Source: a phage
Sequence record: PZ452582.1
Length of the DNA stretch: 64,000 nt
Reading direction: 5' to 3' (one strand)
Part shown: piece after piece, positions 21,984 through 24,648 of the stretch
Layout: each line of letters starts with the position of its first letter
Position numbering within the stretch: the stretch's first letter is position 1
Notes under the pieces: model-generated
Told to the model about the DNA's origin: nothing
The model's input: only the letters and a program-made list of their open reading frames with translations
Database searches by the model: none
Position numbers and translations under genes: made by a program

Positions 21984-23012
21984 ATGTCATCAATACCTTG
22001 GATTGATAATGAGTTTGCATACCGTGCATTAGCTCATTTACCTAAATTCACACAAGTAAATAATAGTTCAACTTTTAAATTACGGTTTAGATGCCCTGTT
22101 TGTGGAGATTCAAAAACCGACCAAAATAAAGCCCGTGGATGGTATTATGGTGATAATAATGAAGGAAATATTCATTGTTATAACTGTAACTATCATGCAC
22201 CAATCGGAATATATTTAAAGGAGTTTGAACCTGATTTATATCGTGAGTATATCTTTGAAATAAGAAAAGAAAAAGGTAAAAGTCGTCCAGTAGAAAAACC
22301 TAAAGAACTTCCTAAACAACTTGAGAAGAAAATAATTAAATCTCTTCCGTCATGTGTTAGATTAGATAAACTGGCGGAAGACCATCCAATTATAAAATAT
22401 GTAAAAGCTCGTTGTATTCCAAAGGATAAATGGAAATATCTTTGGTTTACAACCGAATGGCCTAAATTAGTTAATAGCATAGCACCGGGAACATATAAAA
22501 AGGAAATACCTGAGCCTCGTCTTGTTATTCCAATTTATAATGCTAATGGAAAAGCTGAGTCTTTTCAAGGACGTGCATTAAAGAAAGATGCTCCCCAAAA
22601 ATATATCACCATCAAAGCTTATCCTGAAGCAACAAAAATCTATGGAGTCGAACGAGTTAAAGATGGTGATGTATATGTTCTAGAAGGACCTATAGATTCA
22701 CTTTTTATTGAAAATGGTATAGCTATTACGGGTGGTCAATTAGACCTAGAAGTTGTTCCATTTAAAGATAGACGTGTGTGGGTTTTAGATAATGAACCTC
22801 GTCATCCTGACACTATTAAGCGAATGACTAAATTAGTTGATGCAGGAGAAAGGGTTATGTTTTGGGATAAATCTCCCTGGAAATCAAAAGATGTTAATGA
22901 TATGATTAGAAAGGAAGGTGCAACCCCTGAACAAATTATGGAATATATGAAAAATAATATTGCACAGGGGTTGATGGCTAAAATGCGGCTATCTAAATAT
23001 GCCAAGATTTAA
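21984..23012 (+). CDS. 61: gp61 DNA primase
   Basis: 342 aa; zinc ribbon CPVCGDS...CYNC; TOPRIM region; T4 gp61 length. Confidence 0.93.
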   Translation: MSSIPWIDNEFAYRALAHLPKFTQVNNSSTFKLRFRCPVCGDSKTDQNKARGWYYGDNNEGNIHCYNCNYHAPIGIYLKEFEPDLYREYIFEIRKEKGKSRPVEKPKELPKQLEKKIIKSLPSCVRLDKLAEDHPIIKYVKARCIPKDKWKYLWFTTEWPKLVNSIAPGTYKKEIPEPRLVIPIYNANGKAESFQGRALKKDAPQKYITIKAYPEATKIYGVERVKDGDVYVLEGPIDSLFIENGIAITGGQLDLEVVPFKDRRVWVLDNEPRHPDTIKRMTKLVDAGERVMFWDKSPWKSKDVNDMIRKEGATPEQIMEYMKNNIAQGLMAKMRLSKYAKI

Positions 23013-23209
23013 ATTAACCCAACTAAAGCAAATGCTAGATCTACGAATGTATCAAGAGTAACCACTGGAATATTAATACCATGTGCAATTGCAATAGGTG
23101 ATAGAATAAAGTTCCAGAGTAAAATTCCTACCATAGCAGAAATAGTAAAAGCTATACGTTTTTTATTACCTTTTATGGCATTAACAAGTGCCATTAATTT
23201 TTGTACCAT
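23009..23209 (-). CDS. small membrane protein, antisense to the operon direction
   Basis: 66 aa, two hydrophobic segments; strong SD AAGGAGG 5 nt before ATG; convergent with primase, overlapping by 4 nt. Confidence 0.45.
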   Translation of the reverse strand: MVQKLMALVNAIKGNKKRIAFTISAMVGILLWNFILSPIAIAHGINIPVVTLDTFVDLAFALVGLI

Positions 23210-23253
23210 ATGTCCTCCTTTAAATTAATATTTATCACAAATTTCATAAATTT

Positions 23254-23283
23254 GTTTACTTTCTCAGCTTGTTATGGTATTAT
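23254..23283 (+). promoter_or_regulatory. early promoter
   Basis: GTTTAC 23254-23259, 17-nt spacer, TATTAT 23278-23283; palindrome ACAAATTT-cat-AAATTTGT (23239-23257) overlaps the -35. Confidence 0.55.
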
Positions 23284-23308
23284 AAAATAAATTGCTGAGG
23301 ATGATATA

Positions 23309-23869
23309 ATGATTAATAAAATTGTACATGAAATGGCTTTAAACGGAGATTCATATAAAATATCTGCCATAGTTGAAAATTTTATACTTAATAAAGTAAA
23401 AGAATATTTCACTGATTGTTCAGTTAGTTATCAAGAAAAAATGGTTTTAACCGATGATACTGAAAAATCAAATAATTTATTTTGTTCGAATTTTATAACT
23501 AAGAAGCGTACTAGAAGATTTGATATTGTTATTTCTCGCAATGGTAAAAAGCATATAATTGAAATTAAACATCAAGTTGGTGGAGGTACAGCTATTGATT
23601 CGGTTGGAATATATTTAGAAGATAAAGAGAAATTAAAAGAATACACAAAAACTGAAAACCCTGTGTCATTGATGATATTAGATTTTTTGCCATGCGGATA
23701 TTATCCACGTAATAAATGGACAAAAAGAGAATCATTTACTGATAATCCAACCATCCAAGCAAGGTTTAATGAATATGCTAAATCACAAAACGTGTTAGTA
23801 TTACTATCAAATACATATGATGAAGAATTATATAATTCGTTTTTTGCTGCAATAAATGAGAGAATATAA
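23309..23869 (+). CDS. hypothetical protein with PD-(D/E)xK-like signature
   Basis: 186 aa; [17 protein letters not shown] (D...E-x-K spacing typical of restriction-endonuclease-fold nucleases); stop overlaps dam ATG (TAATG). Confidence 0.55.
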
Positions 23870-24648
23870 TGCTAGGAGCTATCGCGTATACAGGTAATAA
23901 ACAGTCATTATTACCTGAACTTAAGCCTCATTTTCCAAAATATGACAGATTCGTGGATTTATTTTGTGGAGGTTTATCAGTGTCTTTGAACGTCAATGGT
24001 CCTGTATTGGCCAATGATATTCAAGAACCAATTATTGAAATGTATAAGCGTCTTATTAATGTATCATGGGATGACGTATTAAAAGTAATAAAGCAATATA
24101 AACTATCAAAAACATCAAAAGAAGAGTTTTTGAAATTACGTGAAGATTATAATAAAACTAGAGATCCTCTTTTACTTTATGTTCTTCATTTTCACGGGTT
24201 TAGTAATATGATTCGTATAAACGATAAAGGAAATTTTACTACTCCGTTTGGAAAAAGAACTATAAACAAAAATAGTGAAAAACGCTTTAATCACTTTAAA
24301 CAAAATTGTGATAAAATAATCTTTAGTTCATTGCATTTTAAAGATGTCAAAATTCTAGATGGCGATTTTGTATATGTGGACCCTCCATATCTTATAACAG
24401 TTGCTGATTATAATAAATTTTGGTCAGAAGAAGAAGAAAAAGACCTTTTAAATCTTTTAGATTCTTTAAATGACAGAGGAATAAAATTTGGACTGTCGAA
24501 TGTTTTAGAGCATCACGGAAAGGAAAACACTCTTCTTAAAGAATGGTCTAAAAAATATAATGTTAAGCATCTTAATAAAAAATACGTCTTTAACATATAT
24601 CATTCCAAAGAAAAGAATGGAACTGATGAAGTATATATTTTTAATTAA
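23869..24648 (+). CDS. dam: Dam DNA N6-adenine methyltransferase
   Basis: 259 aa; FxGxG SAM motif [11 protein letters not shown] and catalytic DPPY; T4 Dam length. Confidence 0.92.

Follow-up and report, generated by a model that had tools for sequence, protein, structure and literature searches.

The Dam protein of phage T4, an experimentally established GATC methylase, is a textbook solitary phage methyltransferase; to our knowledge, the benefit of Dam to a phage with hypermodified cytosines has never been clear. In DpnII/MboI-type GATC restriction-modification (R-M) systems (Streptococcus pneumoniae dpnM-dpnA-dpnB; PF04556), a D12-class GATC methylase adjoins a PD-(D/E)XK endonuclease. The Chlorella virus PBCV-1 carries the pair R.CviAI/M.CviAI (GATC), in which a lytic virus combines a nuclease with a protecting adenine methylase; its algal host DNA is unmethylated at GATC sites and is degraded. 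The Type IIP enzyme MunI (CAATTG) is under the control of a C protein.

Here we analyze the region between primase and dam in the window, the 64,000-nucleotide stretch of phage DNA in record PZ452582.1. ORF186, a 186-codon gene, immediately precedes dam there, and on balance the two probably form a compact two-gene Type II R-M cassette, found in virulent T-even-type phages, with a putative GATC specificity. The locus contains the following features.

21984-23012, plus strand: primase (gene 61)
23009-23209, minus strand: 66-aa membrane ORF, convergent with primase (4-nt overlap)
23234-23241, no strand: left copy of the 8-bp direct repeat ATCACAAA, at the left end of the T4 deletion
23255-23283, plus strand: early promoter of the ORF186-dam operon (sigma-70/T4-early type; TTTACT, 17-nt spacer, TATTAT, upstream TG)
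23297-23301, plus strand: Shine-Dalgarno GAGGA, 7 nt 5' of the ORF186 start codon, as read in the sequence
23309-23869, plus strand: ORF186, predicted PD-(D/E)XK restriction-endonuclease-fold protein (PHROG 8706, no assigned function)
23375-23377, plus strand: codon of ORF186 E23, invariant in the family alignment, on the helix preceding the catalytic core
23519-23569, plus strand: predicted ORF186 catalytic core, residues 71-87 (D72, E85, K87)
23782-23789, no strand: right copy of the 8-bp direct repeat ATCACAAA, at the right end of the T4 deletion; everything 3' is kept in T4
23867-23871, plus strand: TAATG stop/start overlap of ORF186 and dam, with one shared base
23869-24648, plus strand: dam, Dam-family GATC N6-adenine methyltransferase, 98% identical to T4 Dam

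Gene 61 and dam are 856 bp apart in the window and 309 bp apart in T4, in line with the initial annotation, which had put the distance at about 850 bp and the two genes closer together in T4. That annotation took the additional DNA for an insertion, and the reverse is true. T4 carries a deletion of approximately 540 bp (window positions ~23242 to 23781) between the 8-bp direct repeats ATCACAAA, and it retains the last ~87 bp of ORF186 as a frameshifted 3' remnant, which led us to reject an insertion relative to T4. The deletion also removed the promoter region of ORF186, leaving T4 with no early promoter at this site. In T2, the ORF186 allele is frameshifted 8 codons before its end. These comparisons suggest that T-even phages ancestrally carried a nuclease-methylase pair, a state still common and seen in T2, and that a small deletion produced the orphan dam of T4. 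The "orphan" Dam of T4 looks like the survivor of a two-gene R-M cassette whose nuclease T4 deleted.

A plus-strand early promoter had been proposed upstream of ORF186. Indeed, sigma-70-type elements are located at 23255-23283, with 9 of 12 matches to the consensus and an extended -10. The GenBank records of JB75 and Lutter annotate a promoter at the equivalent place, and GTTTAC is also present upstream of the ORF186 homologues in KPV15 and MX01. The TAATG overlap described earlier is read at 23867-23871, and translation of dam is predicted to be coupled through it to termination of ORF186.

The initial annotation further described an operator-like palindrome over the -35 element. The perfect 8+3+8 repeat exists, but it lies at 23237-23255 rather than 23239-23257, and only its last base touches the -35 hexamer, as the first base of that hexamer. 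It is made up of two tandem copies of the 9-bp unit CAYAAATTT, which contains the self-complementary AAATTT. T2 has no palindrome because it carries only one copy of the unit, and MX01 and KPV15 carry none. The window contains 32 perfect inverted repeats whose arms measure 8 bp or more, versus 13.7 +/- 3.9 in sequences simulated with a first-order Markov model. We rejected an operator role for the palindrome, given its chance-level occurrence in the window, its origin as a tandem duplication, and its absence from T2, MX01, and KPV15. The locus thus has no conserved upstream palindrome, nor is a controller-protein gene present, as would be expected of an R-M operon regulated in that way.

The 66-aa membrane ORF, which had been counted as part of the same module, is a separate gene. 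It does lie on the opposite strand, convergent with primase, and is preceded by the reported AAGGAGG Shine-Dalgarno sequence (AAGGAGG-ACAT-ATG). The two-helix topology proposed for it is plausible: hydropathy analysis of the product shows one long hydrophobic stretch at residues ~19 to 45 and a second, Asp-containing stretch at ~49 to 66. The ORF is tied to the 3' end of primase, occurs in 693 phage records versus 189 for ORF186, is intact in T4, a phage without ORF186, and is missing from the cassette as found in KPV15. It also has a late-promoter-like element, GATAAATA, on its own strand, which in MX01 is a perfect TATAAATA. On these grounds, we excluded it from the module.

ORF186 is a real gene under selection. 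It belongs to a full-length PHROG family (PHROG 8706), is intact in 155 phage records, and has dN/dS values of 0.03 to 0.19. The only annotation in the records inspected (about 155 genomes carry the gene) is "hypothetical protein," and a literature search found nothing on it. The family is small, with 12 representatives among 1.8 billion proteins; scans of viral and metagenome contigs returned only near-duplicates of known members, and a tblastn search of plasmids with a distant member gave no match.

The initial annotation had noted D...ExK spacing in this ORF and proposed structure prediction as a check. The resulting AlphaFold2 model (pLDDT 82, pTM 0.80) has a PD-(D/E)XK fold with the helix-strand-strand-strand-helix-strand core and D...ExK motif of the EcoRI/MunI-like class. 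D72 lies within the strand formed by residues 67 to 77, and E85 and K87 lie within the strand formed by residues 80 to 88. These three residues and E23 are invariant in nine family sequences, down to 29% identity, so that ORF186, like the nuclease of a Type II R-M system, combines a predicted nuclease fold with intact catalytic residues. The best structural match of the model is MunI, and many of the following matches are also Type IIP restriction enzymes. A viral fold library yielded only the MX01 orthologue and generic nucleases, and no solved structure was matched in sequence searches, whether the query was the single protein or a profile. ORF186 is therefore predicted to be a small MunI/EcoRI-class PD-(D/E)XK endonuclease with an active site composed of E23, D72, E85, and K87. 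Since MunI recognizes CAATTG, the fold is uninformative about the specificity of ORF186.

Sequence profiles give a weak link to a GATC-specific family. Pfam DpnII (PF04556) is the top match for four of the nine ORF186-family members (best E value, 8.3e-5), and these four are the only ones matching it at an E value of 1 or less. The window ORF186 scores 16.9 bits (E value, 0.0041), below the gathering threshold of 23 bits. Its match covers DpnII profile positions 152 to 235 of 278; ORF186 has no counterpart of the first ~125 to 150 DpnII residues and does not have the full DpnII architecture of about 280 residues. Among PADLOC nuclease models, the family matches only PDLC03548 and PDLC03569 (best E value, 5.3e-6); these two also recognize a genuine DpnII sequence, with 420 and 101 bits, respectively. 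An hhalign comparison of the family with a DpnII alignment (P value, 7e-4; probability, 27%) pairs E23, D72, E85, and K87 of ORF186 with E152, D201, E214, and N216 of DpnII, and the aligned motifs are the helix glutamate, RFD(I/F)VI, IE(I/V)(K/N), and GxG. In the reciprocal search with a DpnII HMM against a background of 1009 ORFs, six of the nine family members rank in the top nine. The initial DpnII probe scored 335.7 bits against Pfam and was then replaced by database sequences. This weak but consistent similarity suggests a remote relationship between ORF186 and the DpnII/MboI catalytic core.

The partner gene is readily assigned. The window Dam matches TIGR00571 at 234.8 bits, belongs to PF02086, and is identical to T4 Dam at 253 of 259 positions. 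A bacterial genome scan with a Dam alignment found the closest bacterial relatives of T-even Dam in AlwI-type (GGATC) systems, with no ORF186 relative adjoining the AlwI-type genes in that scan.

Comparing the 61-dam interval across relatives, as had been suggested, revealed ORF186 in relatives of the phage and its deletion in T4. At each of the 16 loci where the downstream DNA could be read (nine lineages), Dam immediately follows ORF186, usually with an overlap; the two genes overlap by as much as 35 nt or are separated by up to 13 nt. The two proteins diverge in matching rank order (Dam/ORF186 identities of 76/64, 62/41, 55/32, and 52/29%). In Klebsiella jiaodaviruses, the pair is found elsewhere in the genome, between denB and ndd; in KPV15, the cassette thus sits among host-DNA-attack genes, denB encoding endonuclease IV. 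Six of 151 Jiaodavirus records contain the pair, and the one other record that we inspected has a clean empty site from which both genes are missing together. About 70% of matching Tequatrovirus records are without ORF186, and the majority of records that match the locus retain dam without an intact ORF186. As in Type II R-M systems, nuclease and methylase are separate adjacent genes, and orphan methylases occur: Dam without ORF186 is frequent, as in T4, whereas ORF186 without a downstream Dam is found at none of the informative loci. This asymmetry is expected if the nuclease is harmful without its methylase.

GATC is scarce in these genomes, with observed/expected ratios of 0.36 in the window, 0.38 in T4, 0.18 in KPV15, and 0.22 in M198, which has neither gene. 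The idea that carriers of the cassette are poorer in GATC was rejected, as depletion is equally strong in relatives without it, and the scarcity thus lends the R-M reading no particular weight.

The initial annotation had raised the possibility of a methylation-guarded nuclease. This proposal gains support from the predicted fold, the invariant E/D/ExK residues, the weak DpnII similarity, and the obligate adjacency to Dam in every lineage and in two genome positions. The nuclease activity, GATC specificity, methylation sensitivity, and biological target of ORF186 are inferences. In an R-M pair, both genes would be transcribed early from one promoter, ORF186 would act as a homodimer cutting GATC sites without N6-methyladenine, and Dam would protect DNA against it. 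The phage's own DNA would be shielded by Dam methylation and by glucosyl-hydroxymethylcytosine. The known hosts (E. coli, Shigella, Yersinia, and Klebsiella) are Dam-positive. T4-type DNA is resistant to 94% of Type II enzymes (PMC7653180). With hosts and phage DNA of this kind, neither is an obvious substrate for ORF186. The likely targets would be un- or under-methylated cytosine DNA, for example, plasmids, the DNA of co-infecting phages, or host DNA that is newly replicated or comes from dam-deficient cells. The pair may alternatively persist as a selfish, mobile unit. The nuclease is dispensable and easily lost, leaving dam an orphan, as in T4.

ORF186 might be an active GATC endonuclease adapted to (glucosyl-)hydroxymethylcytosine DNA lacking adenine methylation, with Dam conferring self-immunity and the two genes serving as a weapon or addiction cassette against Dam-less T-even co-infectors. 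We regard this as doubtful, though it would fit the strong GATC avoidance across the phage group and, if true, would provide the first functional reason for T-even phages keeping Dam.

It is unlikely that ORF186 follows a DpnI-like logic, with cleavage restricted to GATC sites that combine a methylated adenine with an unmodified cytosine, while Dam tops up the methylation of cytosine DNA from host or competitor and so creates substrates, and glucosyl-hydroxymethylcytosine guards the phage DNA. Hosts that are already Dam-methylated would offer a target to a methylation-dependent enzyme and none to a methylation-sensitive one, and phage DNA is broadly resistant via its cytosine modification. The position of the KPV15 cassette next to denB and ndd would suit an attack on host DNA, and the strict linkage of ORF186 to Dam is also compatible. 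However, the sequence similarity is to the methylation-sensitive DpnII type and not to DpnI, the ORF186 model has no winged-helix methyl-reader domain, and genomes with ORF186 only, which would be expected in Dam-positive hosts, were not seen; the fold alone is insufficient to decide methylation preference.

Location among replication genes (primase and dCTPase) and the weak Hjc match of the KP179 cassette protein could instead indicate a nuclease of repair, recombination, or strand discrimination, for example, a MutH-like nickase at hemimethylated GATC or a structure-specific Hjc-like enzyme, acting with Dam in phage DNA metabolism. This role is improbable: the top structural match and many further ones are Type IIP enzymes, MutH is not among the 60 best, ORF186 is dispensable in most relatives, and the cassette moves independently of the replication genes, having another neighborhood in KPV15. 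We give equally little credence to a catalytically silent relic, in which a degenerate restriction enzyme is retained for binding DNA or modulating Dam, for example, by affecting dam translation or target choice. ORF186 is about 100 residues shorter than DpnII, its T2 allele is frameshifted at the C terminus, and Dam-positive hosts offer no obvious substrate, but the four predicted metal-binding/catalytic residues are invariant over deep divergence under strong purifying selection, and MunI (target length, 200) shows that a complete Type IIP enzyme is possible at ~200 residues. Finally, a free-standing homing endonuclease that cuts alleles without ORF186 close to the 61-dam junction, spreading by recombinational repair like seg/mob, with dam merely adjacent, is very unlikely despite the presence/absence polymorphism among close relatives and the abundance of such elements in T-even genomes (e.g., segF adjoining gene 56 in T4), as T4 shows a deletion that left a 3' remnant rather than a clean endonuclease-free site and ORF186 always travels with Dam, also to the other genome position, with the presence of the two genes varying jointly in Jiaodavirus.

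If ORF186 is active, it would represent a new and very small restriction-endonuclease family and an example of a virulent phage with hypermodified DNA that has its own R-M system. The "hypothetical protein" label would be corrected, and the purpose of T-even Dam would become directly testable in existing phages (T2, HP3, JB75, and Lutter).

Among known systems, T4 Dam is 98% identical to the window Dam and shares its location, with gene 61 on one side and gene 56 on the other, but T4 has no ORF186 partner, only the deletion of ~540 bp, the frameshifted 87-bp remnant, and no early promoter. As in DpnII/MboI systems, a D12-class methylase gene adjoins that of a predicted PD-(D/E)XK endonuclease, and DpnII-type models are the only sequence-level relatives of the ORF186 family, with the helix glutamate, RFD(I/F)VI, IE(I/V)x, and GxG aligned. 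In contrast to DpnII, all ORF186 scores fall below family thresholds, the protein has 186 rather than 288 aa and is without the N-terminal ~125 to 150 residues, and its motif is a canonical ExK rather than ExN. The phage gene order is endonuclease followed by methylase, with overlapping genes and no second methylase, and the ORF186-dam pair resides in a virulent hydroxymethylcytosine phage, whereas DpnII resides in a bacterium. MunI and the EcoRI-like Type IIP enzymes are similar in size (200 aa for MunI versus 186 aa), but MunI is 13% identical to ORF186 with no detectable sequence relationship, has a different recognition sequence, and is regulated by a C protein of which the ORF186-dam cassette shows no sign. 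R.CviAI/M.CviAI resembles the proposed pair in joining a GATC-specific nuclease to a protecting adenine methylase in a lytic virus, and differs in that the hosts of the ORF186 phages are Dam-positive. The KP179 cassette, at the same Jiaodavirus hotspot, starts with a 210-aa Hjc-like ORF; an MjaIII-like D12 methylase gene overlaps this ORF, and Dam comes next. Like the ORF186-dam pair, it lies between denB and ndd and has a small PD-(D/E)XK-like ORF in overlap with a D12-class methylase, and the KP179 motif E...VDIV...IDVK can be aligned to the core of ORF186. It differs in having two methylases and no significant relation to ORF186 (hhalign P value, 0.064).

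The window belongs to a T4-like phage (Tequatrovirus), and 504 phage records match the 1,051 bases around the locus of ORF186, the 186-aa ORF directly upstream of dam, at 90-99% identity. The ORFs, 17-residue motif, AAGGAGG ribosome site and TAATG stop/start overlap described in the initial annotation are all present in the sequence, as is a long gap between gene 61 and dam, which measures 856 bp versus 309 bp in T4. The region is laid out as follows.

20815-21456 and 21458-21814, plus strand: two adjoining ORFs of 213 aa and 118 aa, upstream of gene 61.1
21984-23012, plus strand: primase (gene 61)
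23009-23209, minus strand: 66-aa ORF, with a 4-nt overlap at the primase stop codon
23175-23194, plus strand: terminator-like hairpin ATGGCATTAACAAGTGCCAT with a T run after it, ~165 nt 3' of the primase stop
23229-23236, minus strand (that of the 66-aa ORF): sequence resembling a T4 late promoter, GATAAATA, upstream of the 66-aa ORF
23234-23241 and 23782-23789: 8-bp direct repeat ATCACAAA, bounding the segment missing from T4
23309-23869, plus strand: ORF186
23869-24648, plus strand: dam, with dCTPase (gene 56) next in the local gene order

The hairpin lies in the 5'-terminal part of the 66-aa ORF on the other strand and may terminate the primase transcript. The 213-aa and 118-aa ORFs have near-identical C-terminal peptides (SIDDQIFNAFMNKG and SIDDQIFNAFMNRG) and resemble tandem paralogues occupying the place of gene 61.2 in T4.

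The segment carrying ORF186 had been read as an insertion relative to T4; instead, T4 carries a deletion. Collinear homology between the window and T4 extends to 23241 and resumes at 23782, and what T4 retains of ORF186 is a 3' end of ~87 bp, frameshifted by 1 nt, the early promoter and codons 1-158 being absent. The collinear flanks, this 3' remnant and the 8-bp repeats bounding the missing segment indicate that T4 is a deletion derivative. ORF186 is intact in 155 phage records, and 34 further records hold only a C-terminal remnant. The T2 allele and the T4 remnant (locus L001) have in common a 1-nt deletion in a T run (3030-3046 of compared locus L006), which in T2 turns the last 8 codons of ORF186 into FLLQ-stop and separates it from dam, eliminating the overlap.

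ORF186 is a real gene under selection, with dN/dS values of 0.04 (JB75), 0.03 (Lutter), 0.09 (T2) and 0.19 (Dhakavirus MX01). It matches PHROG 8706, a family without assigned function, from end to end (E = 7.6e-116), and no Pfam or NCBIfam family reaches threshold. The ORF186 family has very few members: when 1.84 billion representative proteins were searched with a profile, 12 matched, several of them fragmentary, and scanning viral and metagenome contigs yielded nothing beyond near-duplicates.

The only sequence-level relatives of ORF186 are DpnII-type GATC endonucleases, and all matches are weak. Pfam DpnII matches more members of the family than any other Pfam entry does (4 of 9, with E = 8.3e-5 at best and 0.0041 for ORF186 of the window), and all scores stay below the 23-bit cutoff. 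The PADLOC models PDLC03548 and PDLC03569 also match the family (best E = 5.3e-6); a genuine DpnII sequence scores 420 and 101 bits against them. For a direct comparison, a DpnII sequence whose family identity was confirmed at 335.7 bits served only as a probe, and a DpnII alignment was built from database sequences retrieved with it. Profile-profile comparison of the ORF186 family with this alignment gave P = 7e-4, though with a probability of just 27%, aligning ORF186 E23 with the invariant DpnII E152 and pairing the segments RRFDIVI/KRFDFVI, IEIK/IEVN and GGGT/GSGS. In the reverse search, a DpnII HMM run against 1,009 background ORFs placed 6 of the 9 family members in the top nine. These similarities suggest that ORF186, although outside the DpnII family by curated criteria, is probably related at a distance to the DpnII catalytic core, with a minimal N-terminus.

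The strongest evidence in the analysis is the linkage of ORF186 to Dam. In all 16 loci with readable downstream DNA, which include Tequatrovirus genomes, T2, Dhakavirus MX01, metagenomic T4-like contigs and two distant members on short contigs, a T4-type D12-class methylase lies immediately 3' of the ORF186 homologue, at spacings from a 35-nt overlap to a 13-nt gap. No ORF186 without Dam was seen among these loci, whereas Dam without ORF186 is often seen, an asymmetry one would expect were the nuclease damaging in the absence of the methylase. Ranked by identity, the homologues of both proteins fall in one and the same order (Dam/ORF186 identities of 76/64, 62/41, 55/32 and 52/29%). Klebsiella phage KPV15 (Jiaodavirus) has the pair away from primase, flanked by denB and ndd. 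Of 151 jiaodavirus records that match this region, only 6 reach a coverage of 80% or more; most of the others match ~47-48% of the query, split in two pieces, and in M198, the single such record inspected, the flanks are directly joined, leaving a clean empty site. This pattern of presence and absence indicates that ORF186 and dam behave as a two-gene cassette. On the metagenomic contig with the most distant ORF186 homologue (L008), Dam is followed by a gene for a 726-aa protein (1664-3844) with only a weak HATPase_c match.

The initial annotation had also placed the 66-aa ORF and a palindrome in the module. The 66-aa ORF, whose product is hydrophobic, is a separate gene: it occurs in 693 phage records, including T4 (about 17,724-17,921 of NC_000866), where it is intact and unannotated in the RefSeq record, spans the primase 3' end in 25 of 25 among the matches listed, and is absent from the KPV15 cassette. 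It is probably expressed late; the MX01 counterpart of its promoter-like sequence is a perfect TATAAATA. The palindrome, at 23237-23255 (two bases from its earlier placement), is a tandem duplication of CAYAAATTT, found as a single copy in T2 and not at all in MX01 or KPV15. Palindromes of this kind are no rarer in the window than chance predicts (32 versus 13.7 +/- 3.9 expected), and on both grounds it was rejected as part of the module.

We lean, by a small degree, towards ORF186 and Dam forming a compact Type II restriction-modification pair, for which we infer activity, specificity and methylation sensitivity. The cassette would be transcribed early from TTTACT-17-TATTAT, and translation of dam would be coupled to that of ORF186 at its termination. 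ORF186 would cut unmethylated GATC and Dam would protect against it; the window Dam is 98% identical to T4 Dam, an established GATC methylase. Among 4-bp palindromes in the window, GATC is the most depleted by a wide margin (observed/expected 0.36), with ratios of 0.38 in T4 (1-41000), 0.18 in KPV15 and 0.22 in M198, which has neither dam nor ORF186. Depletion is thus a group-wide property and lends the cassette no specific support. The rival readings make ORF186 a methylation-dependent mark-and-cut nuclease acting on host DNA, a repair or MutH-like nuclease, a homing endonuclease, or a silent relic or regulator, but specific evidence counts against each. The weak point of the restriction-modification reading is its biological target. 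The hosts are Dam-positive. T4-type DNA is resistant to 94% of Type II enzymes (PMC7653180). Competing phages or plasmids whose DNA is under-methylated are plausible targets; another possibility is that the pair survives as a selfish cassette.

At the denB-ndd hotspot occupied by the pair in KPV15, Klebsiella phage KP179 (L089, 891-3191) carries a different cassette. Its 210-aa ORF, which has a weak Hjc/PD-(D/E)XK signature, shares an overlap with the gene of a D12-class methylase that carries an MjaIII-like annotation, and the usual Dam comes next. T4-like phages may have a second small pairing of nuclease and methylase here. Among bacterial proteins, those closest to T-even Dam (L009-L088; 35-42% identity) belong for the most part to gut Bacillota, Bacteroidota and Spirochaetota. 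A Pfam scan of the ORFs in one such locus, L009, showed a second D12 methylase upstream and a ~650-aa AlwI-family (GGATC) endonuclease downstream, and a similar layout recurs in many other bacterial loci. In Streptococcus sp. and S. mitis (L077 and L088, 1777-5936), a 716-aa protein has the Dam-like domain as its C-terminal portion, and a 670-aa ORF comes after it, an arrangement unlike the classical dpnM-dpnA-dpnB layout.

ORF186 is labelled hypothetical in every GenBank record inspected, and full-text literature searches found no description of it. Compared with known restriction-modification pairs, what would be new here is a minimal endonuclease family, in a virulent phage with hypermodified DNA, whose partner is a methylase long treated as an orphan.
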